Below are positions 6,705-30,441 of a stretch of 39,462 nucleotides of DNA, one piece after another. The DNA comes from Pseudomonadota bacterium. GTDB lineage: Bacteria > Pseudomonadota > Alphaproteobacteria > MPNO01 > UBA2964. The stretch lies in assembly GCA_027624735.1 (NCBI GenBank), contig JAQBTY010000003.1, positions 1-39,462 of the forward strand. The letters run 5' to 3'. The number at the start of each line of letters is the position of its first letter. Position 1 is the stretch's first letter. The notes beneath the pieces were generated by a model. That model saw only the letters and a program-made list of their open reading frames with translations. It made no database searches and had not been told where the DNA came from. Both the position numbers and the translations under genes were made by a program.

Positions 6705-6716
6705 TGATCCCTCTTT

Positions 6717-7574: not shown

Positions 7575-7588
7575 CTCTTCCCCACTCC

Positions 7589-8464: not shown

Positions 8465-8579
8465 AGACGAAGCCTCCTTATTGTTTGTCGCTCTACCGTT
8501 TCCCCGATTGCAGTCAGTATAGGCGAAAATCGGCGCCCACTCCAAGATCGGTTCCGCACCCGCGAAGCCAAGCCGGCGC

Positions 8580-8608
8580 TTGCCGCCCGGCGGAACGGAA
8601 CGTACTAT
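8580..8608 (+). promoter_or_regulatory. Putative sigma70 promoter for the Bug-OCD-MarR unit
   Basis: TTGCCG (8580-8585), 17-bp spacer, then TACTAT (8603-8608). Confidence 0.45.
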
Positions 8609-8659
8609 CCGCGCCTGATCCATAGGATAAATTCACGTCACCTTACAAGGGAGACCCCA

Positions 8660-10835: not shown

Positions 10836-10874
10836 TTTGAGGCCGTTGGCACCATTCCACAGTAGTGACGACCC

Positions 10875-11345: not shown

Positions 11346-11452
11346 AGACGGGGATCACGCTTACCAGCAACGTACCTGATTTACGGGTTGGAAAGGACGC
11401 TTGGCTACTCTTGGCGGGATTCTTGCAATCTCAGCCCCAAGGGTAGGCCCCT

Positions 11453-13210
11453 GTGACACCGCATATTGGTACAATCCAACCACACCAGGCTGTAACACGG
11501 GGCTTCGATACCAGAGCGTGGGCCGCCCTCGCGTTCACCGTGACGAGTACATTCCTGATTCTGCTGTATTTTCACGACCGATTTTGGTTCTCGCGAGATG
11601 ATGGGTATTACGCCGAGATCGCGGCGCGCATCATCGCCGGCGATGTGATCCATCGCGACGTACAGGCGCTCCATACCGGGCTGATCTATTTTACCAACGC
11701 ACTGGCTCTTAAACTGTTTGGCGGAGATTTCATCAGCCTGCGTTATCCGCTGATCGCGGCTGGCGTCGTACAGGCGATATTGGCCTACCTGATCCTCGTC
11801 CCGCGCGGGATCGTGCCAGCCATGGTTGCCGGATTTGCCGGGGCGTCCCTGTCCGTTGTCCAGTTCTATAACCCCACCGCGCACTGGTACTGCGTACCGA
11901 TTTTCTTCGCCATCGTGATGGCTGTGGGTCCCACGGGTAGGGCGTGGCGCTGGCGGCTGGAGATCATCGGGGCGCTGCTGGCGACCTTGTTCCTTTACCG
12001 CCAGCTTACCGGCGTGTTCGTCGCCATCGGCGTGCTGACCTATCTGTTTCTCGACACGACGGAGGCGGAGCGGCGCGACCGACAGACTTGCTGGCTTGCG
12101 CGCACGATGATCGTCGTCATGGCGGCTGGCGTCTTTGCGTATCTCAGCGGCAAGGCGGATCCGGTAGCCTGGCTCGCCTTTGGCATCTGGCCTCTCCTTG
12201 TATTGCTGCGCGCCTGTTTCACGGTGACCATGGATAACCGCCATGGCGCCACCCTGTTGGGACGGCTTGCCGTGGGTGGCGCTGCCGCATTCATGCCACT
12301 GCTGGTCTACCATCTTGCGACCGGCTCGTTCGGTGCCTGGATGACCGATTCCTTCTTCGATGCCATTGCTCTGGGTGAGTTCTCTTATCAGAAGACAGCG
12401 CGATATGGCCTCTTCGCGCTTGTCGCGCTCAAGCAACTCGGCGATCCCAGCCGCTTGGGTGCGTTTCTAAACGGGCTCTATTGGCCAGTGCTAATTTTCG
12501 CCACCATGGCGCTGGGCATCGCCACTATAATCCGGCTTTACCGCCAGCCATTGGCCAGCGCGCCCAGTTTCGGCGAAACCGGCATGGCGCTGCCGTTCCT
12601 CGGCGTCTTTTATGGCCTCGTCGCGGTGCACTACCAGGACCCAGCCTATCTCTATTTTATCGCTGGCGTGACTGCCGCCGCGCTGCTCTGGTATGGCGCG
12701 GGATTGAGGCCCCCCTATCGCGCAGCCTTAATCGCCGCTGTTGCTTTACAGGCGGCAACAGGGCTGGCTTTTCACGCCGCCCAGCCGATCTCGCGCAGTT
12801 ACGCAAGCATGCTGGCCGGTGAGCGTGTGCCGGTGGTGAAGAGCAACCATGCGGCCCTGGCCGGCCTGTCCATGACTGCGAGCGATAAGGAGGCCCTGCT
12901 CGCTCTCATCGACCGGTACACCAAGCCGGATGACGCGATTCTCGCCATCCCGTCCAATGCCGATCTTTATTTTCTCTCGGGGCGGCGGAATCCGCTGCCC
13001 TATATGTTTGTGCCGTTTGGCGTCCGCGACGACGCGACAACAACTCAGGCGCTCAAGACCCTCGACGCCGATCCGCCGCGGCTGGTATTCCACGTGCCCG
13101 CGTTGCCCTACAATACCGCCCATACCAACCGGATCATGGATTTCGTGCGTACCGGCTACAACCATATCGCCACGTTGCGCGAGTTCGTCATCTATCTCCG
13201 GCGCGACTGA
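11453..13210 (+). CDS. Polytopic membrane protein, probable GT-C fold glycosyltransferase (ArnT/PMT-like)
   Basis: First TM followed by SRDDGYY and G...HRD, many hydrophobic segments, and a C-terminal soluble domain with LYFLSGRRNP typical of GT-C proteins. Confidence 0.6.
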   Translation: MTPHIGTIQPHQAVTRGFDTRAWAALAFTVTSTFLILLYFHDRFWFSRDDGYYAEIAARIIAGDVIHRDVQALHTGLIYFTNALALKLFGGDFISLRYPLIAAGVVQAILAYLILVPRGIVPAMVAGFAGASLSVVQFYNPTAHWYCVPIFFAIVMAVGPTGRAWRWRLEIIGALLATLFLYRQLTGVFVAIGVLTYLFLDTTEAERRDRQTCWLARTMIVVMAAGVFAYLSGKADPVAWLAFGIWPLLVLLRACFTVTMDNRHGATLLGRLAVGGAAAFMPLLVYHLATGSFGAWMTDSFFDAIALGEFSYQKTARYGLFALVALKQLGDPSRLGAFLNGLYWPVLIFATMALGIATIIRLYRQPLASAPSFGETGMALPFLGVFYGLVAVHYQDPAYLYFIAGVTAAALLWYGAGLRPPYRAALIAAVALQAATGLAFHAAQPISRSYASMLAGERVPVVKSNHAALAGLSMTASDKEALLALIDRYTKPDDAILAIPSNADLYFLSGRRNPLPYMFVPFGVRDDATTTQALKTLDADPPRLVFHVPALPYNTAHTNRIMDFVRTGYNHIATLREFVIYLRRD

Positions 13211-13354
13211 CAACTGGCCGGTTCCGCCTCAACACGCGTCGAACAGGCACCATGAAAATTTGTTAGACCGACCCCACAGACCTCGCCGCGATGATCGCGT
13301 CGTGGTATAGTTTTTTTTCTGACGGACCCAACAACACCCCAAGCGATTTTTCAT

Positions 13355-14638
13355 ATGGCGGATACAGTCCAGCCCGACGGCATGGCCGATGACAGGCCCC
13401 AATCCTTCGCAGCCATGCGCCATCCCGGCGCGCGCGCCTATCTGATCGGCGGCGCGCTGGCGATGATGGCCGACAGCATAGAACACGTGATCAGCTACTG
13501 GATGATCTATGAAAAGTTTCATTCCCCCATGCTGGGCGGGTTCGCCATCCTGTCGCACTGGCTGCCGTTCCTGCTGTTTTCAGTCTGGGCCGGCGGATTG
13601 GCGGACCGGTTCGACCCGCGCCGCATCATCCAGTGGGGCATGGTGCTGTTCATGCTGGTGTCGTTCGGCTGGGGCGTTCTGTTCCTGACCGATACGCTGG
13701 AGATGTGGCACGCCGCGGTGCTGCTGGTCATTCACGGCATCGCAGGGGTTTTGTGGGCGCCGGCGGGTCAGCTTCTGGTCCATGACATCGTCGGCGGCAA
13801 ACAGCTGCAAAGCGCCATTCGCACCATGGCGACGACCCGCACGCTGGGCCTGCTGCTGGGACCGGCGATCGGCGGCGGGCTGATGATCTGGCTCGGGCCG
13901 ACGTACGGCATTTTCGTCAACATCCTGATCTATCTGCCGCTGACCCTCTGGCTGTGGAAAGCGCCCTACGGCCCCGCCTTTCGCAAGGAAGAACGACCGG
14001 CGGCCAGCAAGCTAGGCGGGTTTGCCGACATCGTGGCGACGCTCGCGGCCATAAAGGACACCCCCGTCATCATCACCATGATCGCCGTCGCCGGCGTATC
14101 GTCTTTCATCGTCGGCAATGCCTATCAGGGGCAGATGCCGGCCTTCGCCGAAGCGCTCGGCTATGGCGGCGCGGGTATGTTCTACAGCCTGCTGTTCACC
14201 GCCAACGCCATCGGCGCGCTGACCGCGGGCGTGGTGCTGGAAACCGGCGGATTTCTATCGGCCCGTCCGCGACCGGTCTTTATCATGGTCATCCTGTGGT
14301 GCGGCGCCATGATCGGGTTCGCCGCGACCAAGAGTTATCCAATGGCGTTTTTCCTGCTGTTCATGGCGGGCTTTCTCAATTTGTCGTTCAGCTCCATGTC
14401 GCGGGCGCTGGTTCAGCTCAACGCGCCGCCCGCCCTTCGCGGCCGGGTGATCGGGCTCTACAATATGTCGGATCTGGGGCTGCGCTCGTTCAGCGGCCTG
14501 ACGGTCGGGTTCGGCGGCAGCCTGATCGGCATCCACTGGTCGCTGGGCCTCAGCGCGGCGCTGCTGGGCGTGGTCGTCATGGCGATGATGCTGGTCATGC
14601 TGCGCAAAATGCCGGACGGAAGCACGGCCGGCGGCTGA
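13355..14638 (+). CDS. Major facilitator superfamily transporter
   Basis: About 12 TM segments, motif A GGLADRFDPRR and a second-half P.ALRGRV motif. Confidence 0.9.
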   Translation: MADTVQPDGMADDRPQSFAAMRHPGARAYLIGGALAMMADSIEHVISYWMIYEKFHSPMLGGFAILSHWLPFLLFSVWAGGLADRFDPRRIIQWGMVLFMLVSFGWGVLFLTDTLEMWHAAVLLVIHGIAGVLWAPAGQLLVHDIVGGKQLQSAIRTMATTRTLGLLLGPAIGGGLMIWLGPTYGIFVNILIYLPLTLWLWKAPYGPAFRKEERPAASKLGGFADIVATLAAIKDTPVIITMIAVAGVSSFIVGNAYQGQMPAFAEALGYGGAGMFYSLLFTANAIGALTAGVVLETGGFLSARPRPVFIMVILWCGAMIGFAATKSYPMAFFLLFMAGFLNLSFSSMSRALVQLNAPPALRGRVIGLYNMSDLGLRSFSGLTVGFGGSLIGIHWSLGLSAALLGVVVMAMMLVMLRKMPDGSTAGG

Positions 14639-14693
14639 ACGGAGGCCGGCGTGCCAGACGGATTGCCATTGTACAGGCGATGGTATCGCCCTC

Positions 14694-15677
14694 CTACCCG
14701 CCGGTGAATTGTCGGATTACCCGTAACGCGAGGGACTTTTCTTCCTCGCTGCCGCTGACCTGGATCACCGGTTCCTGCAGGCCGGCTTCGAGATAGGCTT
14801 CGAGGCATTTGGCGCACTCGGCGGGCGTGCCGGCGACACCGAACGCCTCGACGGCGTCGTCGGGCACCAGGCTCGCGGCCTTATCGAGATCGCGGTCCGC
14901 CACGGCGTCGATGATGGCATCCTGGTCGATGGGAATACCCGCGGCCTTGATGTTTTCCGCCATCAGCCGGTTACGGAACAGGAAGCCGAGCTTGCGGCGC
15001 ACATTTTCCCGCGCCGACTTTCCGTCACCCGACACGGCGAAATGGATGTTCCCGGCGTTGCGCAGTTTGGCGGGATCGCGGCCCGATTCCCTGGCGCCTT
15101 GTTCGAACAGGGCGAGACAATGGGACACGAACGCCACCGAGAAGCCGGCGGACAGCAATATCCCGTCGGCGGTGTTGCCCGCCGCCTTCGCCACATCGCT
15201 GCCAAGTGCTGTGACAAAGATGGGGATTTCAGGCGGTCGAAAAGACATCCGCGCGCCGCTCAGCAGATAGGATTCTGTATAGCTTTCGGTGGGTTCGGTG
15301 GTCCACAGGGAGCGCAAATCCGCAATGTAATCTTCCACCGCCCTCACCCCGTCCTGCGGGTCCTTGCCAGATTCTTTCAGATCCAGCGTGTTGCCGACGG
15401 CGACGGACACCGCCACCCGCCCGGGATAGGCTTCGGCCATGGTGGCCAGCGACATGGCGGTGGGTGTGGGGTGAAACAGATAGGGCGTCACCGCGGCGGG
15501 AATAACGGTCGCACGTTCGGTCGCCCCGGCAAACGCCATGCAGGACACCAGCGCCTCGCGATAGCCGATATGTTCGGTCATCCACAGCCCGGTCACGCCT
15601 GCCTGCTCCGCCTGCCGGCAGATCTCGATGGTTTCGTTGATGGTGTCGAACCCATCGAACCGGATGCCGATGCCCAT
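14694..15677 (-). CDS. Luciferase-like (LLM) oxidoreductase, Mer-like, probably F420-dependent
   Basis: WMTEH, TPYLFHP, ATMAE..PGR, ADGILL and VAGTP.EC. Start trimmed to the ATG at 15677 (GGGAG RBS). Confidence 0.85.
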   Translation of the reverse strand: MGIGIRFDGFDTINETIEICRQAEQAGVTGLWMTEHIGYREALVSCMAFAGATERATVIPAAVTPYLFHPTPTAMSLATMAEAYPGRVAVSVAVGNTLDLKESGKDPQDGVRAVEDYIADLRSLWTTEPTESYTESYLLSGARMSFRPPEIPIFVTALGSDVAKAAGNTADGILLSAGFSVAFVSHCLALFEQGARESGRDPAKLRNAGNIHFAVSGDGKSARENVRRKLGFLFRNRLMAENIKAAGIPIDQDAIIDAVADRDLDKAASLVPDDAVEAFGVAGTPAECAKCLEAYLEAGLQEPVIQVSGSEEEKSLALRVIRQFTGG

Positions 15678-15698
15678 GGTTATTGTCTCCCTGTAAGG

Positions 15699-15817
15699 CC
15701 CCTCACCCTTCCCACGACACAAGCGTGTCGCGGGTCCCTCCCCTCTCCCGCGAGCGGGAGAGGGTTACTAAGCCTTAGCGAGCCAACGGGCGAGCCTAGG
15801 CGCAGTTGGGTGAGGGG
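15699..15817. repeat. Alphaproteobacterial intergenic palindromic repeat (CIR/RIME/REP-like element)
   Basis: Terminal inverted repeats CCCCTCACCC (15699-15708) / GGGTGAGGGG (15808-15817) enclose two hairpins: CCCACGACAC/GTGTCGCGGG (15711-15734) and CCCTCTCCCG/CGGGAGAGGG (15741-15764). Confidence 0.75.
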
Positions 15818-15841
15818 AAATTTCATGTCCTAAATCTAACG

Positions 15842-16837
15842 TCACCCGCCGGTGAATTCGCGGATCACGTCGAGCGCGAAGCGCCTTTCCTCGGCGCTGC
15901 CGCTGACCTCGATCACCGGCTCGTCGACGCCGGCATCGATATAGGCCTGGAGCTGGTCGCGGCATTGTTTCGGCGTGCCGGCGACGGTGAATTGCGGCAC
16001 CGCGTCGGGCGGGATCAGCTGGGCAGCCTCTTCCAGTTTGCGCTGTTTCACCAGATCGATAATCGCCTCGTGATCGATCTGAACATCCACCGAGGCGATA
16101 TTTTCGGCCTGCGCGGAATTGCGGAACAGGAAGGCGATTTTGCGCCGGTTGGATTCGATGGCCGTTTTACCGTCTTCGGAACAGGCAAAATAAACAAAAC
16201 CGGCCTTGCGGAATGTCGAGGGGTCGCGGCCGGCCTTGGCGAGGCCCGCTTCCGCGAAAGCCGCACCTTTCTTGATGGAGGCCAGCGACAGCCCGCCGGA
16301 ATAGAGCACCCCATCGGCGATCCGGCCGGCCAGCCCCAGCACCTGCGGGCCGGTCGAGGCGATAAAGATCGGAATTTCCTCAGGCGGCGTGAAGGCGAGC
16401 CGCGCGCCGCGCAACTGCCAGACCAGCCCTTCCTGATCGACGGTCTCTCCCGCCCATAGCGCGCGCAGGGCTTCGACATATTCGCGGATCACCCGCACCG
16501 GTTTTTCCGGCTTTTCGATGCCGGATTCGCGCAAGTTCAGAAGATTGCCCACCGAGACACAGATCCCGACCCGCCCCGGCGCCAGTTCGGCCATGGTGGC
16601 GAACTGCATGGCGGTCGGCATGGGATGCCACAGATAAGGCATCACCGCCGTCGGGCAGACCATGGCGCGGCTGGTCTTTTGCAGAAAGGCCGTGCATGAC
16701 ACCGCCGCCTCGCGATAGCCGAGATGTTCCGCCATCCAGATAGTGCTGGCGCCGGCCGCTTCGGCTTGCGCCGCGACCTCGATGGTCTCGCCGACGGGGT
16801 CGAACCCGTCAAACCGCATGCCCAGTCTTACAGCCAT
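15842..16837 (-). CDS. Luciferase-like (LLM) oxidoreductase, Mer-like, probably F420-dependent; paralogue of 14694..15677
   Basis: WMAEHLGYRE, MPYLWHP, IFIASTGPQ (compare Mer GAQGP) and AGRIADGV. Both paralogues end in [EQ]FTGG. Confidence 0.85.
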   Translation of the reverse strand: MAVRLGMRFDGFDPVGETIEVAAQAEAAGASTIWMAEHLGYREAAVSCTAFLQKTSRAMVCPTAVMPYLWHPMPTAMQFATMAELAPGRVGICVSVGNLLNLRESGIEKPEKPVRVIREYVEALRALWAGETVDQEGLVWQLRGARLAFTPPEEIPIFIASTGPQVLGLAGRIADGVLYSGGLSLASIKKGAAFAEAGLAKAGRDPSTFRKAGFVYFACSEDGKTAIESNRRKIAFLFRNSAQAENIASVDVQIDHEAIIDLVKQRKLEEAAQLIPPDAVPQFTVAGTPKQCRDQLQAYIDAGVDEPVIEVSGSAEERRFALDVIREFTGG

Positions 16838-16849
16838 CCGCCTACTCCC

Positions 16850-17974
16850 TTAATCGTCGAAACCGTTGGTGAGCAAATTCAGAAACTCGTCCCTGGTGAT
16901 ATCGCCAAAACCCATCCGGGCCAAGGTCAGTCCCTCGGCGCGAAAGTCGCGGCACATGATCACGGACGCCAGATGGATGATATGATCGATGGTCGGCGTC
17001 GGCACCCCGGCAAGGCGTCCGAGCTCCTGATAGATCAGATGGCCGTAGGGCACGTCTTCCAGCAGATAGCGGCTATCGAGGCTGGTGGGCGCCATGATCC
17101 ATTTGTCGGGCTCGCTCTGGTGAAACGCTTCGTAGGCGATGCCCGTATCGCGCGCCGCGTCGGTGGTGTAGCCCATGCGCCAGAACAGCTCGACAAACGG
17201 CATGGTTTTGGCGCCAAGCGCCTCCGCCACCGCCACCCGTTCGCGATCAACCGCATCGATCAGGCGACCGACCGACGGCGTGATGCCATCGTAATAATGC
17301 CGATAATCGCCGCCTGTCGCTTCGATACGCCCGACATTGCACAGCACCGCCGGCGGATGATGGATCGCATTGCCATAGGGGAACACGGTTTCCAGCACGT
17401 TGGAAAATTTCTGCACCGACGGGTAGACGGTCTTCACCACATCGTACATCCGTCCCGTCTCGCGGCCCGGAAACCCACCGAACACCATGAAGTCCGACAC
17501 CCGCGAGATTTTGCATTTGGTGGGCTCGATCCGGCGGCACAGATACGGCAGCGTCGCGGTTTCGCAAAAGACCGGGTTCTTGATGCCGTGCTCGCGCAGC
17601 ACATGCGGGATCATCAACAGCGTGTGACCGGGTGAGACAAACAATACCTGGTCTTCGGTCAGGTGCGGCGCCGCCGCCGACACCCATTTTTCATGCAGAT
17701 GCGCCGGGCTGACGATCATCACCAGTTCGGCGCCCGCCATGGCTGCTTCGGCATCGTCGGTAATCAGCCCGATGGGCGCAAAGCCGTCGCCAAACGGCGC
17801 CGTGTAGTTGATGCCGCCAAGTTCCTGCAGCGGCGCCAGCGCTTCCGGGTCCTGACTATAAAGCCTGATGTCAAAACCGAGCGTCCCGAGATGCGCCGCC
17901 GCCGACGTGCCGCCGCCGCCTGCGCCGAAGATGGCGATGCGCTTGACCGGTGATGTATCGGGAGAGGCAGTCAT
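16850..17974 (-). CDS. NAD/NADP-dependent octopine/nopaline (opine) dehydrogenase family protein
   Basis: GAGGGG Rossmann motif, ETATLPYLCR, NAIHHP (catalytic His), DRERVAVA and RYLLEDVPYG (catalytic Asp). Start trimmed to the ATG at 17974, 1 bp after the upstream stop. Confidence 0.88.
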   Translation of the reverse strand: MTASPDTSPVKRIAIFGAGGGGTSAAAHLGTLGFDIRLYSQDPEALAPLQELGGINYTAPFGDGFAPIGLITDDAEAAMAGAELVMIVSPAHLHEKWVSAAAPHLTEDQVLFVSPGHTLLMIPHVLREHGIKNPVFCETATLPYLCRRIEPTKCKISRVSDFMVFGGFPGRETGRMYDVVKTVYPSVQKFSNVLETVFPYGNAIHHPPAVLCNVGRIEATGGDYRHYYDGITPSVGRLIDAVDRERVAVAEALGAKTMPFVELFWRMGYTTDAARDTGIAYEAFHQSEPDKWIMAPTSLDSRYLLEDVPYGHLIYQELGRLAGVPTPTIDHIIHLASVIMCRDFRAEGLTLARMGFGDITRDEFLNLLTNGFDD

Positions 17975-17975
17975 G

Positions 17976-19079
17976 TCAGGCGCCCTCCGCCACGAAGCGG
18001 TCGAGATCCGCCGGGCCAAGACCGGCAAGCCCCATTTTCGCCAGCGTCAGCCCGGTTTCAGCATAGGGAATATCCATCAGCTGCGAACAGAGATGGATCA
18101 GCGCATCGATTGTAGGGGTTGCAACCCCCGCCAGATCGCCGAACGCGGCGAACGGCACCAGCCCATAACCAACGTCTTCATGCACATAACGGTGATTCAG
18201 GCTGGGCGGACTCATGATGGATTTATTAGGTTCGCTCTCGACGCAGGCGCGGGAGATATCGCCGCTGTCCAACGCTTCTTTCGTGGTCAGGCCGGCCTGA
18301 TAGAAATTTTCGAGAAAAGACGCGCTTGGCACACCCAGCGCCTTGGCCACCGCAAGCCGTTCGCGGTCCACTTCCGCCGTCACCCGACCGACCGCCGGCG
18401 TGATGCCTTCGCGGTAAAACAGAAAGTCGCCTCCGGTATCTTCTATCCAGCCCGCATTCATCAGCATACCGGGGGTGTGGAATACCGCGTTGATGTTTGT
18501 GAGCCCGGTTTCCAACACGCTGGAGCGGAGCACGATTTCGGGATAAAGCGGCTTGATGGCGGCAAAAAGCTCATCGGCATGCTTACCGGGAAAGGCGGCG
18601 AATTTGAGATTTTTCACATAGCTGAAAATATCCACCTCGGCCGGGCCGGTCTTGCGGCAGATATAGCTCAGCGTCACCCCTTCGCAGGTCTTCACGGCGT
18701 CGCGATACCCCGCCTCACGCAGGCTGTGGACGAAATGCAGTCCGCCGCCGGTATGGCCGGGATTGACGAAGACCGGCAGATCGGGAGTCAGAAAGGGCGC
18801 CAGCGCCTGGGCATAAAACCCGTGCGCGACCGAGGGCACCACCAGCATCACCAGGTCCGCGCCATGAACGGCGTCGGCCACGTCTGTGGTCATCAGATGG
18901 ACCGGTATCAGGCCGGTCTGCACGCCCTTGGCCAAAATGCCGCCCTGCGCCCGGATCGGGGCCAGGCTTTCTTCCCGCCTTGCGTGAAGCCGAACCTCCA
19001 AACCACGCCTGGTCAAATCCACCGCCGCGGCTAGCCCGCCGTGGCCCGCCCCCATGATCGCTACGCTGCGGATATCCAT
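17976..19079 (-). CDS. NAD/NADP-dependent octopine/nopaline (opine) dehydrogenase family protein
   Basis: GAGHGG, NPGHTGG, TLSYICR, NINAVFH, FYREGIT and HRYVHEDVGYGL. Confidence 0.9.
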   Translation of the reverse strand: MDIRSVAIMGAGHGGLAAAVDLTRRGLEVRLHARREESLAPIRAQGGILAKGVQTGLIPVHLMTTDVADAVHGADLVMLVVPSVAHGFYAQALAPFLTPDLPVFVNPGHTGGGLHFVHSLREAGYRDAVKTCEGVTLSYICRKTGPAEVDIFSYVKNLKFAAFPGKHADELFAAIKPLYPEIVLRSSVLETGLTNINAVFHTPGMLMNAGWIEDTGGDFLFYREGITPAVGRVTAEVDRERLAVAKALGVPSASFLENFYQAGLTTKEALDSGDISRACVESEPNKSIMSPPSLNHRYVHEDVGYGLVPFAAFGDLAGVATPTIDALIHLCSQLMDIPYAETGLTLAKMGLAGLGPADLDRFVAEGA

Positions 19080-19206
19080 CGTCTTGATGTCGCCTTGCTG
19101 TTGTTGGCCTGATCGATCTTTTCCGGCGACCGGTTCCGCAGTATTGTCGGATCAAACGTAAGACCTATCAACCCCGAGCCCGCAACCCTTCTGGAAAAAT
19201 CGACGC

Positions 19207-21597
19207 GTGACATCTGACCTGACCGAGACGGAGCTGCGCGACATGGCTGCGCGGCAACCACTGGAAATCCTGCTGGACGACGCCGGCCGCCTGCGCGATT
19301 CCGGACATGGCAGGCTGATTTCCTATTCGCGCAAGGTTTTTATCCCCCTGACCCATCTGTGTCGGGACGTTTGCCGCTACTGCACCTTCGCCCACCCACC
19401 GCGCGAAGGAGAAGCCGCGTATCTGTCGCCGGACCAGGTGCTGGCCATCGCCCGCACCGGGGCCAAAGCGGGCTGCAAGGAGGCGCTGTTCACGCTTGGC
19501 GACAAGCCGGAGCTGCGCTATCGCGCCGCGCGGGAAGCACTGGACGGTCTTGGCTTTGAGACCACGATTTCCTATCTGGCGGACATGTGCCGGCTGGTAT
19601 TCGAGGAAACCGGCCTGCTGCCCCACGCCAATCCCGGCGTGATGAATGCGGCGGAGCTCGCCGCCCTACGGGAGGTCACCGTATCGCAGGGCATCATGCT
19701 GGAGAGTACGTCTTCGCGGCTGTGCGAACCTGGCGGGCCGCATCATGGCTCGCCCGACAAGGATCCGGCGATCCGCCTCGCCACCATCGAGGAAGCCGGC
19801 CGCCAGCGCATCCCGTTCACCACCGGCATCCTGATCGGCATCGGCGAGACACGGGAGGAACGCCTCGATGCGCTGCTCAGCCTCCGCGCGTTGCATCGCA
19901 CCTACGGTCATATCCAGGAAATCATCATCCAGAATTTCCGCGCCAAGCCAGCAACCCAGATGGAAGGAGCAGCGGAGCCGGATCTCGAGGATCTCCTGTG
20001 GACCATCGCCATCGCCCGCCTCACCTTTGGCCCCAATATGAATATCCAGGCGCCGCCCAATCTCAGCCGTAGCGATTACCCCAAACTGATCGCCGCAGGG
20101 TTGAATGACTGGGGCGGAATTTCCCCGGTTACGCCGGATCACGTCAATCCCGAAGCGCCCTGGCCAGCGATAGACTCTTTGCGCGCCAACACAGAAGCAG
20201 CCGGCAAGCAGCTGGTTGAACGGCTGGCGGTCTATCCGGAATTCGCCCAGAACAGCGAGCAGTGGCAGGATTCGACTATCGCGCCCGCTATATTGCGGGC
20301 CATCGATTCGGACGGGTTGGCGCGGACCGAGGATTGGGCGCCGGGGCTGGACCTCCCCATTCCAATGATCGCCCCACCCACCGAAAGGACCGACCCCGCG
20401 ATAACGAAACTGCTGGATCGAGCCAGCGCCGGAAGTGCGCTGAGCGAGACCGACATTGTCCAACTGTTCCATGCCCGCGGCGCTGATTTCGACGCCGTGT
20501 GCAGGTCTGCCGATGCGCTGCGCCGCTCCATCGTCGGCGACCGCATCACCTATGCGGTCAACCGCAACATCAACTACACCAATATCTGCACCTATGGCTG
20601 CCGCTTCTGCGCTTTTTCGAAAGGCCCGCGACGGGAATCGCTGGGTGGCGTGCCCTATCTGCTCGATCTGCCGGAAATCGCCCGCCGCGCGGCCGAGGCG
20701 TGGGACCGCGGCGGCACAGAAGTCTGCATGCAGGGCGGCATCCATCCGAGCTTCACCGGCGACACCTACGTGGCGATCTGCGAGGCGGTCAAACAAGCCG
20801 CGCCCGACATCCATATTCACGCCTTTTCACCGCTCGAAGTCTCGCAGGGCGCGGCGACGCTGGGTATATCGGTCCCCGCCTTCCTCGACAGGCTGCGCGC
20901 CGCGGGGCTAGGCTCGCTGCCCGGTACCGCGGCGGAAATCCTGGACGACGATGTCCGGGCGGTGCTGTGCCCCGACAAGCTTTCGACAGCGGAGTGGCTA
21001 TCGGTAATCGAAAGCGCCCATGAGGCAGGATTCAAAACCACCGCCACCATCATGTTCGGCCATATGGACTCACCGGCCTCCTGGGCGCGGCATCTGATCG
21101 CCATCCGGGATCTGCAGAAACGAACCGGCGGCTTCACCGAATTCGTACCCCTGCCGTTTGTCCATATGGAAGCGCCGCTTTACCGCAAGGGCCAGGCCCG
21201 GCGCGGACCGACCTTCCGCGAGACCGTGCTGATGCATGCGGTGGCGCGGCTGGCGCTTCATCCGCACATAACCAATATCCAGACTTCGTGGGTCAAGCTC
21301 GGCGCCGCCGGCGCAAAAGCCTGTCTCGAAGCGGGCGCCAATGATCTCGGCGGGTCACTGATGAATGAGAGCATCACCCGGGCGGCGGGGACAGAACACG
21401 GTCAGGAATTTGCACCGACTGCCATGGAACAGGCAATCCGGGATCTCGGCCGCGAGCCATGGCACAGAACGACACTCTATGGCGATGCTTCGGCGGAGCG
21501 GCGGCTGGCGGCAAGAAACGCACCGCCGCTGGTCGATCTGCTCATCACGAGGGTTCCGGCAAAGACGGGGATGCGCACAGCCCCGGCCGTGGCTTAG
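19207..21597 (+). CDS. fbiC: Bifunctional FO synthase (CofG-CofH fusion), radical SAM
   Basis: Two CxxxCxxC motifs (CRDVCRYC and CTYGCRFC). CofG motifs YSRKVFIPLT, GSPDK and DHVNPEAPWP; CofH motifs NRNINYTN, PGTAAEILDD and QTSWVKLG. Confidence 0.95.
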   Translation: MTSDLTETELRDMAARQPLEILLDDAGRLRDSGHGRLISYSRKVFIPLTHLCRDVCRYCTFAHPPREGEAAYLSPDQVLAIARTGAKAGCKEALFTLGDKPELRYRAAREALDGLGFETTISYLADMCRLVFEETGLLPHANPGVMNAAELAALREVTVSQGIMLESTSSRLCEPGGPHHGSPDKDPAIRLATIEEAGRQRIPFTTGILIGIGETREERLDALLSLRALHRTYGHIQEIIIQNFRAKPATQMEGAAEPDLEDLLWTIAIARLTFGPNMNIQAPPNLSRSDYPKLIAAGLNDWGGISPVTPDHVNPEAPWPAIDSLRANTEAAGKQLVERLAVYPEFAQNSEQWQDSTIAPAILRAIDSDGLARTEDWAPGLDLPIPMIAPPTERTDPAITKLLDRASAGSALSETDIVQLFHARGADFDAVCRSADALRRSIVGDRITYAVNRNINYTNICTYGCRFCAFSKGPRRESLGGVPYLLDLPEIARRAAEAWDRGGTEVCMQGGIHPSFTGDTYVAICEAVKQAAPDIHIHAFSPLEVSQGAATLGISVPAFLDRLRAAGLGSLPGTAAEILDDDVRAVLCPDKLSTAEWLSVIESAHEAGFKTTATIMFGHMDSPASWARHLIAIRDLQKRTGGFTEFVPLPFVHMEAPLYRKGQARRGPTFRETVLMHAVARLALHPHITNIQTSWVKLGAAGAKACLEAGANDLGGSLMNESITRAAGTEHGQEFAPTAMEQAIRDLGREPWHRTTLYGDASAERRLAARNAPPLVDLLITRVPAKTGMRTAPAVA

Positions 21598-21619
21598 TGT
21601 CTAAACAAGGATCAAGGGA

Positions 21620-22327
21620 ATGACGGAGACACTACCGGCAATCGCCGTGCTGGGGGGAACGGGCAGTGAAGGATGGGGGCTGGCGCTGCGCTGGGCCGAC
21701 GCCGGATATTCCGTGATCATCGGATCGCGCTCGGCTGAGCGCGCACAGGAAGCCGCCGCCGCCATCGATGTTGAGCTGACCGGCCGGCCGGTGCGCGCAG
21801 GGGTCGACCGCCTCTCCGCGCGCGGCATGGCTAATACCGAAGCGGCCAAGGCGTGCCAAGTCGCTGTTCTCACCGTCCCCTTCGACGCCCAGAAATCCAC
21901 GGTGGAGGAAGTCCGGGGCGCGCTTAAGGGAAAGATCCTGGTCGATGTCACGGTGCCCTTGGTCCCGCCCAAAGTGCTGCGGGTTCAACTGCCCAACGGC
22001 GGCTCCGCCGTTGCCGCCATACAGGATATGCTGGGAGAGGAGATCCGCGTGGTGTCCGCGTTCCAAAATATCGCCGCGGCGCATCTGAAGGACCTCGATC
22101 ATGGCATCGATTGCGACGTGCTGGTTTGCGGCGACAACAAAGCGGCACGCGAGGAGATTATCAAGCTTGCCACGGATGCCGGCATGCGCGCCTGGCACGG
22201 CGGGCCCATCGCGAACTCAGCGGTGGCCGAGGCGCTGACATCGGTCTTGCTGTTCATCAATCGCAATTACGGTATCGACGGGTCCGGTTTCAAGATAACC
22301 GGCACGCCCAGCAAGGATAAGGCGTGA
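21620..22327 (+). CDS. npdG: NADPH-dependent F420 reductase (F420H2:NADP+ oxidoreductase, Fno)
   Basis: IAVLGGTG.EG.GLALRWA, IIGSRS, VDVTVPL, VVSAFQNI and DCDVLVCGD. Located inside the F420 operon. Confidence 0.92.
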   Translation: MTETLPAIAVLGGTGSEGWGLALRWADAGYSVIIGSRSAERAQEAAAAIDVELTGRPVRAGVDRLSARGMANTEAAKACQVAVLTVPFDAQKSTVEEVRGALKGKILVDVTVPLVPPKVLRVQLPNGGSAVAAIQDMLGEEIRVVSAFQNIAAAHLKDLDHGIDCDVLVCGDNKAAREEIIKLATDAGMRAWHGGPIANSAVAEALTSVLLFINRNYGIDGSGFKITGTPSKDKA

Positions 22328-23142
22328 CGCCCGAGATGGATACTGCACACCCTCACTCTGACGTGAATGTACCTGCCAGACTGTCCGTCACGGCGCTTGG
22401 CGGCATCCCGCTTATTAAACCTGGAGACGATCTTGTTCAGATCATCCTGGATGCGCTGGACGGGATGGGCGACCGGTTGGAAGATGGTGACATTCTGGTC
22501 CTGGCGCAAAAAATCGTCTCCAAATCCGAAGGCCGCATCGTCGATCTGGAAAGCGTGACGCCGTCCGCCAGGGCCTTAGAGGTTGCCGAACAGGTGGACA
22601 AGGACCCCCGTCTGGTCGAACTGATCCTGTCGGAGGCAACGGAGATCGTGCGCCACCGCAAGGGTGTGCTGGTGGTCGCCCATCGTTGTGGGGTCGTGCT
22701 GGCAAACGCCGGCATCGACCGGTCCAACGTGGATCAGGCGGTCGGGGGAACGGATACCAACGTCCTGCTGCTGCCGGAAGATTCCGACGCCTCCTGTGCG
22801 AGGCTGCGGCAGGATTTCCAGAACCGCGCCGGCGTGACGATCGGGATCATCATAAACGACAGCCTGGGACGGGCATGGCGCAACGGCACGGTGGGCGCCG
22901 CCATCGGCGCTGCCGGGATCGAGGCGCTGCTAGATCTCAATGGCGAACCCGATCTGTTCGACCGGCCGCTGCAAAGCACTCAGGTGGGGCTGGCCGACGA
23001 GTTGGCGGCAACCGCATCGTTGGTTATGGGGCAGGCGGGCGAAGGCCGTCCGGTAGTACTGATCCGGGGCCTTGAACGCGGACATGGCCAGGGTCGCGCC
23101 GCCGATCTGGTCCGGCCACGGGATCAGGACTTGTTCCGGTGA
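22324..23142 (+). CDS. cofE: Coenzyme F420-0:gamma-L-glutamate ligase (stand-alone CofE)
   Basis: PLIKPGDDL, QKIVSKSEGR, ANAGIDRSN, LLPED.D.S, DSLGRAWRNG and ADELA. GTGA overlap with npdG. Confidence 0.93.
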   Translation: MTPEMDTAHPHSDVNVPARLSVTALGGIPLIKPGDDLVQIILDALDGMGDRLEDGDILVLAQKIVSKSEGRIVDLESVTPSARALEVAEQVDKDPRLVELILSEATEIVRHRKGVLVVAHRCGVVLANAGIDRSNVDQAVGGTDTNVLLLPEDSDASCARLRQDFQNRAGVTIGIIINDSLGRAWRNGTVGAAIGAAGIEALLDLNGEPDLFDRPLQSTQVGLADELAATASLVMGQAGEGRPVVLIRGLERGHGQGRAADLVRPRDQDLFR

Positions 23143-24089
23143 TCCTCGCGCTGGCGGGCGGTGTGGGCGGCGCCAAGCTGGCCCACGGGCTGGTCCGAAT
23201 TCTTTCCCCGGACGGGTTGGTGATCGCCGTCAATACAGGAGACGATTTCGAGCATCTGGGGCTGCATATCTCGCCCGATCTCGATTCGGTCATGTACAAG
23301 CTTGCCGGTCTCAACGACACCGAACGCGGCTGGGGTCTCGCGGACGAGAGCTGGCATTTCATGGAAGCGCTGGCGCGGCTGGAGGGGGAAACCTGGTTCA
23401 ATCTGGGCGACAGGGATCTCGCCACCCATGTGGAACGGACGCGCAGGCTTGCAGCGGGCGAAACACTGTCCCATATCACAGCGGCTCTGTGCGGCGCGCT
23501 CGGCATAGAACACAGAATCGTTCCCATGACCGATTCCGCCGTCCACACCATGGTCACGACAGAGGCCGGCACCATACCCTTTCAGGATTATTTCGTGCGC
23601 CTTCGTTGTGAGCCTGTTGTAACCGGGTTTAGTTTCGCTGGCGCGGAAAGCGCCCGCCCTACTCCGGCCTTTACGGCGGCGCTGAAATCGGCAGATCTTT
23701 CTGCCATCGTGATTTGCCCCTCCAACCCCTATGTCAGCATCGACCCGATCCTGAGCCTGGCTGACGTAGCCGCTGCCCTTGAAGGGCGCCGTGTTCCCTT
23801 GGTCGCCGTATCACCGATCATCGGCGGCGGCGCCATAAAGGGCCCAGCGGCAAAAATGATGGCCGAGCTTGGCCTGCAACCGTCGGCGGCTTCTATCGCC
23901 TCACACTACGGTAGGCGACTAGACGGCCTGGTTATCGATCAGACCGATGGAGCGCTCGCGCCCAAGATCGAAGCCATGGGAATTCCGACACATGTCGCGC
24001 AAACCATTATGAAAAGCGCCGATGACGAGCGAACGCTCGCACAAGAAGTCTTGACCTTCGCCGCCTCGTTAAACGTCAGATCAAAATGA
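23139..24089 (+). CDS. cofD: 2-phospho-L-lactate / phosphoenolpyruvate transferase
   Basis: LAGGVGGAKL, NTGDDF..GLHISPDLD, WFNLGDRD.ATH, PSNPYVSI.PIL and KGPAAKMM. GTGA overlap with cofE. Confidence 0.95.
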   Translation: MILALAGGVGGAKLAHGLVRILSPDGLVIAVNTGDDFEHLGLHISPDLDSVMYKLAGLNDTERGWGLADESWHFMEALARLEGETWFNLGDRDLATHVERTRRLAAGETLSHITAALCGALGIEHRIVPMTDSAVHTMVTTEAGTIPFQDYFVRLRCEPVVTGFSFAGAESARPTPAFTAALKSADLSAIVICPSNPYVSIDPILSLADVAAALEGRRVPLVAVSPIIGGGAIKGPAAKMMAELGLQPSAASIASHYGRRLDGLVIDQTDGALAPKIEAMGIPTHVAQTIMKSADDERTLAQEVLTFAASLNVRSK

Positions 24090-24712
24090 GACTGTTTGCC
24101 GTCATTCCGGTCAAACCGTTCGCGGAGGGCAAGTCTCGGCTCAAAAATATCCTGTCCGATACGGCACGGCGTGATCTCAATTTTCGTATGTTCGAGCACG
24201 TCCTCACCGTAGCCGCTTCGATGATCGGCGCAGCCAACACCATCGTCGTAAGTGCCGATCAGACCGCGCTGGCCCTGGCCCGTGACCACGGCGCGACAAC
24301 CGTTCGCGAAGCAACGCGCACCGGGCTGAACGCCGCCCTGAAAGTGGGTGCGGAGAAGGCGGCGGCGCGCGGCGCGGATGCGATTCTGATCCTGCCCACG
24401 GACCTCCCCACGCTGTCACAGGACGATTTAGAGGCGCTTTTAGACTGCGCGAAGATTCCGCCGTGCGTCATTATCGCCCCCGACCGATCGAACCGGGGCA
24501 CCAACGCGCTTTTGATATCCCCGCCAGATGCGATCGGGTTCTCCTTTGGACCCGATAGTTTCTCCGCACACCAGGCGGCCGCCCACGCCATCCCCGTTAA
24601 GCCGGTGCCGGTGCACCGCGACGGGCTGGCATTCGATATCGACACGCCGGAAGATTATCAACAGCTTGAAAGACAGGGATGGGATGCTATTCGCTCTGTA
24701 GCAGGCAATTGA
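24086..24712 (+). CDS. cofC: 2-phospho-L-lactate / phosphoenolpyruvate guanylyltransferase (CofC/FbiD)
   Basis: IPVK....KSRL, GLNAA, DLP, APDR...GTNAL, FGPDSF..H and DIDTPED. ATGA overlap with cofD. Confidence 0.93.
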   Translation: MRLFAVIPVKPFAEGKSRLKNILSDTARRDLNFRMFEHVLTVAASMIGAANTIVVSADQTALALARDHGATTVREATRTGLNAALKVGAEKAAARGADAILILPTDLPTLSQDDLEALLDCAKIPPCVIIAPDRSNRGTNALLISPPDAIGFSFGPDSFSAHQAAAHAIPVKPVPVHRDGLAFDIDTPEDYQQLERQGWDAIRSVAGN

Positions 24713-24789
24713 AGGGTAGCGAAAACGACAAATTTATGGGGGAATAGACCCGCTCTGCTCCCTCAACCGCCTGATTTTGGAACCACCCG

Positions 24790-25944
24790 ATGAAATTAGC
24801 CTCCTGTAAGACCTATCGCGTTGCCGTCCCGACCCGGCGGGCCCATACCTGGGCCAGCAAGATGGACACACCGATCGGTCATCATGCCATTGTCAAACTG
24901 GAGGCCGACGACAGCACCATCGGCTGGGGAGAATCCCCCGCGGGCGAGACCTGGGGCGGCTCCGATATGCGCTATTACGGCGAATCGCCGGAAACCGTGT
25001 GTCATATGATTGAAACCCATCTTTTCCCCGCCATTCAGGGTATGTCACCGTTTCAGATCGCCAACATTCACGCACGCATGGACCGCGTGGTGAAAGGCCA
25101 TCCCTATGCCAAGGCAGCGCTCGACATCGCGATCTACGATCTTGCCGGCAAGGCGTCGGGCCGACCGGTATGCGAACTGCTGGGCGGCGATTTCCGCGAC
25201 AGCATCGAGGTGACTCATTCGCTTGGCATCATGCCCATCGACCAATGCATCGAGGAAGCAAAGCTGGCTGTGGCGGAAGGCATAACAACGATCAAATGCA
25301 AGACCGGACTGGACCCTGAGCGCGATGTAGAGATCGTCCGGCGGCTGCGCGAAGAGGTCAGCCGGACCGTCAAGATCCGGGTCGATGCCAACGAGGCGTA
25401 CCCCTCCGTCAGCGCGGCGGTCAGCGTCACCCGTGCGCAAGCGGCCTACGGTGTCTTTATCTGCGAACAACCGCTGATGGGCGCTGAAATGCTGGCCCGC
25501 GTCGCCGAGCGCATCGACATTCCGGTGATGGCGGACGAATCCGCCTGGACGGTGCATGACATTATCGAGCTGTACAATCTGCGCGCCGCCGAGTGTTTTT
25601 CCTGCTACGTCACCAAACCGGGCGGGCTATATCGCGCCAAGCAGCAGGGCGATATAGCCCATGCGCTGCACATGTATTGCGATATCGGCGGATCGGTCGA
25701 GCTTGGCATCGGCAACGCCGCCAATCTGCACCTGGGGGCCGCCCTGGAAAATGCCTATTTGCCAAGCGTTTGCCCGGTATCCAAGCCAAAAGGGGCGGCG
25801 GGCCCGGATATCGCGGGCAACTACTACCTCGACGATATCGTCACCGAGCCCTTCAAGTTCGAAGGCGGACGCGTATACCGCCCGCTTGGGCCGGGTCTGG
25901 GGATTGAGGTCGACGAAGACAAGATCGCGACCTACTCCCTATAA
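24790..25944 (+). CDS. Enolase superfamily, muconate lactonizing enzyme (MLE) subgroup (cycloisomerase or racemase)
   Basis: GWGE, AKAALDIAIYDL, KxK motif (KCK), metal ligands in DANE / EQP / DES, second Lys in TKPGG, and GPGLGIEVDE. Confidence 0.85.
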   Translation: MKLASCKTYRVAVPTRRAHTWASKMDTPIGHHAIVKLEADDSTIGWGESPAGETWGGSDMRYYGESPETVCHMIETHLFPAIQGMSPFQIANIHARMDRVVKGHPYAKAALDIAIYDLAGKASGRPVCELLGGDFRDSIEVTHSLGIMPIDQCIEEAKLAVAEGITTIKCKTGLDPERDVEIVRRLREEVSRTVKIRVDANEAYPSVSAAVSVTRAQAAYGVFICEQPLMGAEMLARVAERIDIPVMADESAWTVHDIIELYNLRAAECFSCYVTKPGGLYRAKQQGDIAHALHMYCDIGGSVELGIGNAANLHLGAALENAYLPSVCPVSKPKGAAGPDIAGNYYLDDIVTEPFKFEGGRVYRPLGPGLGIEVDEDKIATYSL

Positions 25945-26117
25945 GCCGATAAATCGCTGGCAGCCGTAATCAGGCCCTACTGATCATGGTGCGACTTTAT
26001 TAACCCCAATTTGGCAGTATTGGCGGCTTTCCGCGCGAAGGAAACTTCGCAAAATTCGTCTGCCCTGAGATAGGGACGCTATATTATCTTTGTTTATCAA
26101 ATGGTTATGATCAGCCA

Positions 26118-26948
26118 ATGCCGACGGCCGCGATTATGAAGAAATCGAACATTGTTCGGGTGTTGCTGGTCCTCATGGCAATGTCGCCGTCATCCATGGC
26201 TGCAATTTATTCAGCCGTGACCGGCCCGAACACAGGCGCTCCCGCTATACATGCCTTCAAGCCATCGGACGTTATTTTTCCTGGATTTATACAAACAGAT
26301 TTAAGGCAGCGACCGGAGGATAACCGAGGATTTTCCGGGTTCCTGGAGGAGGTCCGCAATGCTGTCAATTCGACCAGGGGGGGAGCTTCTTTGACGGATC
26401 GGGCCGAGGACGCATCCCTGGCAAACAGAAGAAGAGACAAGGGCCAATCCCGGAACGCCACCTATGAATCTTCCACTCCGATAAAGCTGGAGCCAAATTC
26501 GAGCACCGGAGCCACGACCGAGGTATATCTGGGCGTCAGTGTAAAACAAATTGTGAGTGAAATTCCGCCTGCCGGAACGATCATCCTGGAACGCCCAACA
26601 AACGGCACCACGGAAAATCGCGCTCGGGGAAAAGGATCGTATTCAGGGTCGGTCAAAGGTGGGGCGCTGGGCAGCGGCGGTAGCTGGCTTCGCGGAGGCT
26701 TTTTGTCGACAGGGGAGGCAAACGGTCTTTCGGGTTTCGGGTTTGACCTGCAGCCCATGTCCTTTCCGACCGATCAGGGAACCGGAGCAATTTTCGGTGC
26801 GGGACCTGGCGAGATCGAAGTCACCAAAGGCTTAAAAGCCCTTCGAAGGATAGTCCTGGATTTGGTCTTCAACCCGTTTGTCTATTTTGGCGGTCTGATC
26901 ATTGCCGTCTTCATGTTTATGGCGCGGTTCCGGAGCACATCGGCCTAA
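26118..26948 (+). CDS. Hypothetical exported protein with a C-terminal membrane anchor
   Basis: Fills the gap between two clear genes. Signal-peptide-like MKKSNIVRVLLVLMAMSPSSMA (possible start at 26136), Gly/Ser/Thr-rich body, C-terminal hydrophobic helix and basic tail. Confidence 0.55.
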   Translation: MPTAAIMKKSNIVRVLLVLMAMSPSSMAAIYSAVTGPNTGAPAIHAFKPSDVIFPGFIQTDLRQRPEDNRGFSGFLEEVRNAVNSTRGGASLTDRAEDASLANRRRDKGQSRNATYESSTPIKLEPNSSTGATTEVYLGVSVKQIVSEIPPAGTIILERPTNGTTENRARGKGSYSGSVKGGALGSGGSWLRGGFLSTGEANGLSGFGFDLQPMSFPTDQGTGAIFGAGPGEIEVTKGLKALRRIVLDLVFNPFVYFGGLIIAVFMFMARFRSTSA

Positions 26949-26968
26949 ATCATTTTCACGCTGTCCGA

Positions 26969-30392: not shown

Positions 30393-30441
30393 GGCCGCTT
30401 CCCCGCCTAAGCTGTTTTTTCGACCCGCCGGAACTGACGGC

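Follow-up and report, generated by a model that had tools for sequence, protein, structure and literature searches.

A gene cluster of opine dehydrogenases, luciferase-like oxidoreductases and an M24-fold hydrolase around a coenzyme F420 operon in an uncultured order of marine Alphaproteobacteria

In the catabolic npd cluster of Rhodococcus and Nocardioides, which acts on picrate and 2,4-dinitrophenol, NpdG is the NADPH:F420 reductase (Fno) and NpdC and NpdI are hydride transferases of the luciferase-like monooxygenase (LLM) family; the genes for biosynthesis of the cofactor, coenzyme F420, are not known to be part of the cluster. In the catabolism of ectoine and hydroxyectoine, EutABC act together with the M24 hydrolase EutD/DoeA. 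Among the opine dehydrogenases (ODHs), N-(1-D-carboxyethyl)-L-norvaline dehydrogenase (CENDH) of Arthrobacter sp. 1C is a single enzyme for which we know of no F420, LLM or M24 partners. The F420H2-dependent imine reductases of the LmbY/Apd6 type fall in class I type C of the LLM fold, clustering with monooxygenases that use flavin mononucleotide (FMN) (PMC8518648). Proteobacterial F420 operons, such as those of Paracoccus, Oligotropha and Mycetohabitans, combine a fused fbiC with stand-alone cofE, cofD, cofC and fno, going by the excerpt of PMC8498797 used here; according to the same review, no F420-dependent enzyme of a non-actinobacterial bacterium had been studied experimentally as of 2021, and the reason why Proteobacteria synthesize F420 at all is listed among the unanswered questions. 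Here, we describe a locus that brings elements of these systems together. It lies on a contig of a metagenome-assembled genome (MAG; 515 contigs, 93.8% complete) of an uncultured marine alphaproteobacterium, and the whole 39.5-kb contig (JAQBTY010000003.1, 39,462 nucleotides) is the window of this analysis. In it, a complete operon for making and recycling F420 stands head-to-head with two ODH and two LLM genes. The genes and the regulatory element that concern us most are the following:

14694–15722, minus strand: LLM-B, a luciferase-like oxidoreductase paralog, F420-class by homology (Pfam Bac_luciferase, E 1.2e-46)
15842–16837, minus strand: LLM-A, a luciferase-like oxidoreductase, likewise F420-class by homology (Pfam Bac_luciferase, E 5.9e-56)
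16850–17974, minus strand: ODH2, opine dehydrogenase family paralog (Pfam Octopine_DH, E 2.2e-42)
17976–19079, minus strand: ODH1, opine dehydrogenase family protein (Pfam Octopine_DH, E 1e-43)
19143–19171, minus strand: predicted sigma-70-like promoter of the ODH operon, TTGATA-17-GACAAT
19207–21597, plus strand: fbiC, fused CofG/CofH FO synthase (NF006687, 1151.5 bits, cut-off 1018)
21620–22327, plus strand: fno/npdG, NADPH-dependent F420 reductase (TIGR01915, 210.6 bits, cut-off 149.8)
22324–23142, plus strand: cofE, F420-0:gamma-glutamyl ligase (TIGR01916, 270.4 bits, cut-off 180.65)
23139–24089, plus strand: cofD, 2-phospho-L-lactate transferase (TIGR01819, 292.4 bits, cut-off 257.45)
24086–24712, plus strand: cofC, guanylyltransferase (TIGR03552, 152.9 bits, cut-off 105)
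24790–25944, plus strand: enolase-superfamily enzyme of the MLE subgroup, hereafter MR/MLE (Pfam MR_MLE_C, E 6e-46, and MR_MLE_N)
26969–28087, minus strand: atypical M24 (prolidase/creatinase-fold) hydrolase (Pfam Peptidase_M24 and Creatinase_N)

All five proteins of the F420 operon thus score above the curated equivalog cut-offs of NCBIfam, which upholds the identities assigned to them in a preliminary description of the window made from the sequence alone; the layout given there agrees with the coordinates as well. The operon and ODH1 diverge across a spacer of 127 bp (19080–19206), fno/cofE, cofE/cofD and cofD/cofC each overlap by 4 bp, and 77 bp separate cofC from MR/MLE, which is read in the same direction. 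On the other side of the spacer, gaps of 1 bp (ODH1/ODH2) and 12 bp (ODH2/LLM-A) are followed by one of 119 or 164 bp between the LLM genes, the value being set by the choice of start for LLM-B, where homology begins near 15677, inside the open reading frame (ORF) 14694–15722. The ODH2 ORF spans 16850–18028; as residue 19 is the first ATG that fits the homology, we take the gene as 16850–17974. Promoter prediction across 13200–28300 returned two sites, of which TTGATA-17-GACAAT is the only one in the spacer; by eye, an element of the form TTGAT-N17-18-(C/G)A(A/T)AC recurs 5' of ODH1 in relatives, whether fbiC or MR/MLE is the divergent neighbor.

Relative to the known F420–LLM catabolic systems the locus is a variant. 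As in the npd cluster, an NADPH:F420 reductase (here matching the npdG equivalog) is encoded with two paralogous LLM-type proteins; unlike it, ODH, M24 and MR/MLE genes are present, whereas npd is not known to have any of these, resides in actinobacterial hosts and is directed at nitroaromatic substrates. The operon itself has the gene content of the Paracoccus, Oligotropha and Mycetohabitans operons, for which no ODH/LLM/M24 set is reported in the literature searched. Searches pairing "opine dehydrogenase" with F420 returned one unrelated review, those pairing "octopine dehydrogenase" with F420 returned none, and the titles listed for the 2021–2026 literature on F420 in Alphaproteobacteria, supplements excluded, named no such cluster. 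The preliminary description likewise knew of no characterized pathway that couples ODHs to F420 enzymes, and the association of ODH, LLM, M24 and, usually, MR/MLE genes with a complete F420 operon is apparently undescribed.

We interpret the locus, with moderate confidence, as a conserved catabolic cluster of an uncultured marine alphaproteobacterial order in which a complete F420 biosynthesis and recycling operon is embedded. Its conservation was assessed in 40 related genomes from five families of one uncultured order, whose named records are all uncultured MAGs labelled Rhodospirillaceae or Alphaproteobacteria. An ODH1 ortholog (63–81% identity) occurs in 27 of the 40. In 18 of these 27, drawn from eight genera and three families at 61–73% FbiC identity, fbiC lies 116–288 bp from ODH1 on the opposite strand; the adjacency on which the preliminary description had beforehand staked its proposal is therefore kept, within 300 bp, in related genomes. 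The gap widens to about 1.8 kb in a further three (G029, G033 and G036), and in G005 the operon is split, with fbiC 12 kb from ODH1 and cofD abutting ODH1. Because the relatives share ancestry, the 18 adjacent cases represent conservation by descent and not separate events. An LLM gene comes after the ODH gene or genes in 23 of the 27, and two of the other four are cut by contig ends.

Placing the proteins of the window on 38 related loci extended the cluster beyond the ODH, LLM and F420 genes that the preliminary description had treated as the whole unit, which was too narrow: M24 and usually MR/MLE lie alongside ODH and LLM both in the presence and in the absence of the F420 operon, and M24 adjoins the LLM pair even where that pair is split from the ODHs (L044, L045). 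One related locus, L013, resembles the window in having MR/MLE 3' of cofC on the same strand (gaps of 60–77 bp in the two). Yet in four loci from which fbiC is absent (L014, L026, L032 and L033), MR/MLE is itself the divergent neighbor of ODH1. Since MR/MLE follows cofC in the one arrangement and adjoins ODH1 in the other, the F420 operon sits inside the cluster, and its position may be the product either of insertion or of later excision. Further, family f2 carries, elsewhere in the genome (L046, L047), a second module consisting of an LLM (55% identity), a molybdenum hydroxylase and an ODH2 (83–86% identity), so that ODH and LLM recur as a pair. In a soil MAG (L037), the genes GntR-M24-ODH-M24-MR/MLE-LLM, ABC-transporter ATPase genes, a gene for an NMT1-type binding protein and ODH-LLM-LLM-cofC all lie on one strand, an arrangement that looks like an inducible operon for uptake and catabolism.

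The two LLMs, 53% identical to each other, are F420-class proteins by homology, nearer to the F420-dependent than to the FMN-dependent members of the fold. For LLM-A, the best NCBIfam family is the Mer family NF002619 (158.6 bits, cut-off 276) against 64.6 bits for the best FMN-class family; for LLM-B, the same Mer family is the best F420-class match (126.2 bits) against 53.5 bits. The other Mer family, TIGR03555, gives 123.2 and 107.2 bits (cut-off 348.7), and the ten best families are all F420-class, with a margin of about 73–94 bits over the best FMN family. Likewise, F420 enzymes (Mer, FGD, Adf and fHMAD) fill the first ten places among the PDB chains, and the first clearly FMN-dependent chain appears only at E 5e-6. 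The best match of both LLMs is Mer itself (PDB 1z69 and 8qpl; full length, E 6e-29), which has the same TIM-barrel LLM fold and is type A in the classification of PMC8518648. In the portion of PMC11094777 used here, Glu6 of jMer protonates methylene-tetrahydromethanopterin (methylene-H4MPT), and the E6Q variant keeps 0.4% of kcat. The residue aligned to Glu6 is Arg8 in LLM-A and, among 26 LLM-A homologs, R in 21, L in five and E in none; jMer Asp96 is replaced by Asn in 26 of 26. Position 178 of jMer was left out of the comparison, as it is Gln in that portion of the paper and Asn in the PDB chain at that count. A search for Mch (PF02289) gave no match in the 93.8%-complete genome and matches in three archaea as the control, and there is therefore no sign of an H4MPT pathway in it. 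Taken together, the sub-cut-off scores, the replaced Glu6 and Asp96 and the missing Mch led us to reject a true Mer for these LLMs. Thus, of the Mer-like F420 LLMs of the preliminary description, the F420-class assignment holds up by NCBIfam and PDB similarity, and the analogy to Mer chemistry at an iminium carbon fails at the residue level. The LmbY/Apd6 enzymes, LLM-fold F420H2 enzymes that reduce a cyclic imine next to a carboxylate, show by precedent that the fold can reduce C=N bonds (PMC8518648); unlike them, the LLMs here match the Mer and FGD types and not type C.

ODH1 and ODH2 (44% identical) are members of the opine dehydrogenase family (PF02317) by their domain matches, with scores of 149.4 and 145 bits (cut-off 30) for the Octopine_DH helical domain and an N-terminal Rossmann fold with GxGxxG (GAGHGG in ODH1 and, read from the translation, GAGGGG in ODH2). 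The best PDB match of ODH1 is CENDH (1bg6; E 1.2e-55 over 356 residues, 4–359), with about one third identity by eye. ODH1 carries the motifs FHTPGM and RYVHED, aligned with 1bg6 and 3c7a, and ODH2 a His in NAIHHP (IHHPPA) and RYLLED; the His and the R-Y-x-x-E-D stretch are common to both, to CENDH and to scallop octopine dehydrogenase (OcDH), and this His and the Arg/Asp are residues that we take, from the OcDH and CENDH literature, to be catalytic. Beyond the class, a phylum-level sample yielded only distant ODHs (32–34% identity, four genomes of one genus), and the ODH homologs of Ignavibacteria (35–36% identity; L039–L041) had no LLM or cof neighbors at the thresholds applied.

The M24 protein aligns over its full length with prolidase (PDB 1pv9, E 2e-31). 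At the five canonical metal-ligand positions, which we take to be D, D, H, E and E from the numbering of the Pyrococcus prolidase and which were located by alignment, it reads E228, G239, H301, E330 and K345, so that three of the five ligands are lost; the E-G-H-E-K pattern is identical in 23 of 23 M24 orthologs from related loci. As the pattern holds in all of them, the protein is not a standard metallopeptidase, and it may be a metal-free hydrolase of the creatinase kind. Its similarity to DoeA is weak (79.7 bits, NCBIfam cut-off 575; PDB 6twk, E 1.2e-15). The locus nevertheless resembles ectoine catabolism, in which three kinds of enzyme, an M24-fold non-peptidase hydrolase, one of the racemase/dehydratase type and an imine-type reductase dependent on NAD(P), act together on a cyclic nitrogen compound; it differs from it in the other partner families, and the ectoine pathway is not known to involve F420. 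The MR/MLE protein is assigned to the MLE subgroup on its two domains and its best PDB matches, which are MLE (3i4k), N-succinyl amino acid racemase (2p88) and dipeptide epimerases. In the ESM Atlas, M24 and LLM-A could be named only to the level of the family. Two related loci (L048 of genome G026, 14993–17361, and L037, 8788–12235) have a distant second M24 paralog (about 30% identity) immediately after ODH1 or at its flank; in L037, a single frame of 749 amino acids spans ODH and M24, which may reflect either a fusion or misassembly.

The working core of the cluster would thus consist of an ODH (duplicated here), a Mer-like but non-Mer F420-class LLM (duplicated here), M24 and, usually, the MLE-type enzyme, and its substrate is most likely an N-substituted or cyclic amino-acid-like compound. 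We infer the catabolic direction from the regulator, hydrolase and ABC transporter/binding protein context of L037. In the scheme we propose, M24 would open or trim a C–N bond of an opine, an N-alkyl or imino acid, or a cyclic amidine- or lactam-type compound, and the MLE-type enzyme would epimerize or dehydrate next to the carboxylate. ODH would interconvert a secondary amine with an imine or 2-oxo acid using NAD(P), LLM would shift a hydride between F420 and a carboxylate-adjacent carbon (a 2-oxo/2-hydroxy or 2-imino/2-amino center), and Fno would couple F420 to NADP(H). That the substrate of the LLM bears a carboxylate next to the reacting carbon is consistent with three hints: the Arg in place of jMer Glu, an FMN-dependent 2-hydroxy-acid dehydrogenase gene in the LLM position of one distant genome (G339, below), and the nearest relatives of MR/MLE. 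The ODHs, which make and consume compounds of the 2-oxo/2-hydroxy or 2-imino/2-amino acid type, would fit the same picture.

A more specific version of this scheme, which we put forward tentatively and regard as unlikely to hold as it stands, is that a coupled hydride relay of a new kind links ODH, the F420-class LLM and Fno at one carboxylate-bearing C–N or C–O center. One example would be a redox-neutral stereoinversion, in which a secondary amine of D configuration is oxidized by NAD(P)+-linked ODH to give the imine or 2-oxo acid, reduction of this product by F420H2-linked LLM yields either the opposite configuration or the hydroxy acid, and hydride is moved from NADPH to F420 by Fno. Such a relay, if real, would enable growth on marine opines or N-alkyl or imino acids; it would also be the first defined physiological role of F420 in marine Alphaproteobacteria and would give a reason for the cofactor genes to lie inside the cluster.

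Several observations weigh against an F420-linked catabolic cluster as we read it. First, ODH and LLM are unlinked from fbiC in five of the 27 ODH1-bearing relatives (G002, G009, G012, G014 and G027), the two LLM genes are separated from the two ODH genes in G003 and G008, and MR/MLE is absent within 10 kb in the largest genus, g7. Second, co-occurrence within the order discriminates little, because fbiC is nearly universal there (37 of 40). Third, none of the LLM scores reaches a curated NCBIfam cut-off. Fourth, in G019 (L017, 5000–9900) fbiC, fno, cofE and cofD are each split over two to four reading frames, with two TGA and two TAG stops in fbiC, beside ODH1, ODH2, LLM-A, LLM-B and M24 genes that are full length and in single frames; this could mean that the cell can manage without F420, that it salvages the cofactor, or that the assembly is of poor quality there. 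Fifth, G339, from another family of the class and the sole carrier of an ODH1 ortholog in a class-wide sample of 300 genomes, has MR/MLE and M24 converging on an FMN_dh-ODH1 pair (L042, 6500–11270). The slot directly after ODH1, occupied by an LLM elsewhere, here holds the FMN-dependent 2-hydroxy-acid dehydrogenase family gene (PF01070, E 2e-133), and fbiC lies 1.25 Mb away; the step can therefore be done without F420 in a genome that has fbiC. Strict F420 dependence of the pathway, as the preliminary description had it, is weakened by these last two genomes, and the part of that claim which rests on the conserved linkage and the F420-class LLMs is retained.

The most probable alternative is that the F420 operon, as a mobile or otherwise relocatable element, came to lie in the divergent spacer of an unrelated catabolic cluster and was inherited there; the ODHs, M24 and MR/MLE of that cluster would be independent of F420, and the LLMs may use it. 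We consider this rather unlikely. Genes for F420 occur without the ODH/LLM set in 10 of the 40 relatives and in 44 of the 300 class-sample genomes, where some of the first-look candidates were scored and gave fbiC in 44, the M24 clade in two, the ODH1 clade in one and the LLM-A clade in none. The unlinked and split arrangements point the same way, as does the AMP-binding gene that lies between fbiC and ODH1 in G029, and descent from one ancestor can explain most of the 18 adjacent cases. The genome also offers F420 other potential clients: of its 29 LLM matches, 27 lie outside the cluster, and three of these are F420-class candidates of the TIGR03619 type, one of them over the cut-off (FDOR-type enzymes, PF04075, had no match in the genome, but the control likewise matched nowhere). 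These distributions are what undo the earlier proposal of a self-contained module, and the broken operon of G019 could be one decaying beside an intact client cluster, or again poor local assembly. A purely positional link is harder to reconcile with an arrangement kept across the eight genera and three families, with the F420-class LLMs being the genes tied most tightly to the ODHs (23 of 27), and with the apparent co-transcription of cofC and MR/MLE in both the window and L013.

An improbable alternative is that the LLMs depend on FMN or another flavin and that their F420 neighborhood misleads. It draws on their position below every curated F420 family cut-off, on the name that NCBI gives their homologs, only "LLM class flavin-dependent oxidoreductase", on the intact LLMs beside the frameshifted operon of G019, and on the FMN enzyme of G339. 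The family scores and PDB ranking set out above argue for F420, as does the finding of an fbiC match in all 27 ODH1-bearing relatives, nearly all of them with an adjoining LLM (in G004 a fragment at a contig end and in G019 the copy with stops), and we continue to treat the LLMs as F420-class members of a catabolic cluster.

Quite improbable, in our estimate, is a biosynthetic cluster in which the product of the ODHs, an opine-type metallophore or another secondary amine, would be tailored by the LLMs and exported by MFS_3. ODH-family enzymes do complete metallophores of the staphylopine type, and an EntS-like MFS_3 gene adjoins LLM-B, with another adjoining cofC in L015. A staphylopine-like product, one form of the metallophore reading in the preliminary description, was rejected since no nicotianamine-synthase-like partner of the CntL kind (PF03059) was found in the 93.8%-complete genome; the control matched one genome. 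Moreover, the constant partners of ODH and LLM are a hydrolase and a racemase-type enzyme, the genes of L037 stand behind a GntR/FCD regulator and are followed by those for ABC-transporter ATPases and the NMT1-type binding protein, and the source strain of the closest solved ODH was isolated on an opine as growth substrate.

Finally, it is highly improbable that ODH and LLM belong to F420 biosynthesis itself, supplying 2-phospho-L-lactate (2-PL) or reducing dehydro-F420-0 where CofE lacks the FbiB reductase domain—their genes do tightly adjoin fbiC, CofE has 272 amino acids with F420_ligase as its sole Pfam domain and no FbiB-type C-terminal domain, and the source of 2-PL or of the dehydro-F420 reductase in bacteria with a short CofE is discussed as open in the excerpt of PMC8764529 used here—and we rejected such a general role on the phyletic pattern, in which fbiC is found in 44 class-sample genomes against none for the LLM-A clade and one for ODH1, and in 10 of the 40 relatives without these genes, while ODH and LLM keep M24 and MR/MLE as neighbors where fbiC is distant, and five nitroreductase-family ORFs elsewhere in the genome, none of them assigned, could act as a stand-alone reductase.

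Around the core, the accessory genes vary from locus to locus and include molybdenum hydroxylase, decarboxylase homolog, class II aldolase/decarboxylase, dienelactone hydrolase, Rieske and amidohydrolase genes; given this variation, the ODH/LLM core may be plugged into different upstream degradative routes. Two such neighbors flank the cluster in the window:

13355–14638, plus strand: MFS_3 (EntS-like) transporter, possible accessory gene, convergent on LLM-B (Pfam MFS_1/MFS_3)
28080–30665, minus strand: molybdenum hydroxylase large subunit, variable accessory gene, true start probably later (Pfam MoCoBD_1/2 and hammerhead domains)

The best NCBIfam matches of the molybdenum hydroxylase are glyceraldehyde dehydrogenase alpha and CODH-like subunits, all below their cut-offs, and homologs lie near the cluster in many, though not all, related loci. 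Within 28080–31227 (minus strand), its gene overlaps the start of M24 and comes after a class II aldolase/decarboxylase-like gene; no genes for subunits binding flavin adenine dinucleotide (FAD) or Fe-S clusters stand beside it, whereas in L015 a gene for an FAD-binding subunit adjoins that of the large subunit. The MFS_3 protein could serve either the cluster or the cofactor, as an exporter or an importer; the MFS_3 gene of L015 (3200–4453; genus g7) is divergent and abuts cofC. Between MR/MLE and M24, the window has a Gly/Ser-rich ORF of 276 amino acids (26118–26948, plus strand) with a hydrophobic N-terminus and no family match, which may not be a gene; L024 and L033 have a decarboxylase-like ORF instead, between or beside MR/MLE and M24. 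A gene at 3983–4972 (minus strand), outside all Pfam and NCBIfam families, encodes a homolog of 4,5-dihydroxyphthalate decarboxylase (PDB 9jp7, E 4.5e-61), and such homologs occur near the ODH cluster in nine related loci (L014, L015, L017, L018, L020, L026, L029, L032 and L033).

Farther out, 4 kb from the cluster, a gene of the ornithine cyclodeaminase/mu-crystallin family is followed by a MarR regulator (9741–11345, plus strand); with its weak matches to pyrroline-2-carboxylate reductase, iminosuccinate reductase and EutC, it may encode another imine-type reductase. Between MarR and MFS_3 lies a very hydrophobic ORF of 585 amino acids with no Pfam or NCBIfam match (11453–13210, plus strand), opposite which runs a long shadow ORF (11405–12436). 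Four tandem TauD/TfdA-family dioxygenase paralogs, 57–76% identical to one another, occupy 4976–8623 (minus strand) and are flanked by weak TctC/Bug-like binding proteins (2875–3909 and 8114–9718, the latter with a start that is probably much later) and by two glyoxalase/extradiol-type genes (962–2679). At the other end of the window (31436–39095) is a type I secretion-like set made up of an outer-membrane efflux protein (an 800-amino-acid ORF), an HlyD-family adaptor and two ABC transporter genes.

The cluster, widespread in one uncultured marine order, offers with its roughly one dozen genes a concrete, conserved and clonable candidate for a function of F420 outside Actinobacteria and archaea. 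Even with a purely positional link between the cofactor and its neighbors, the locus is an example of how catabolic genes can carry a cofactor operon among them. A functional link would extend F420 biochemistry by a new type of reaction or, failing that, a new class of substrate; it would also assign functions to an M24 subfamily and an ODH clade that are both new, and would point to an unnoticed source of nitrogen and carbon in sea water.

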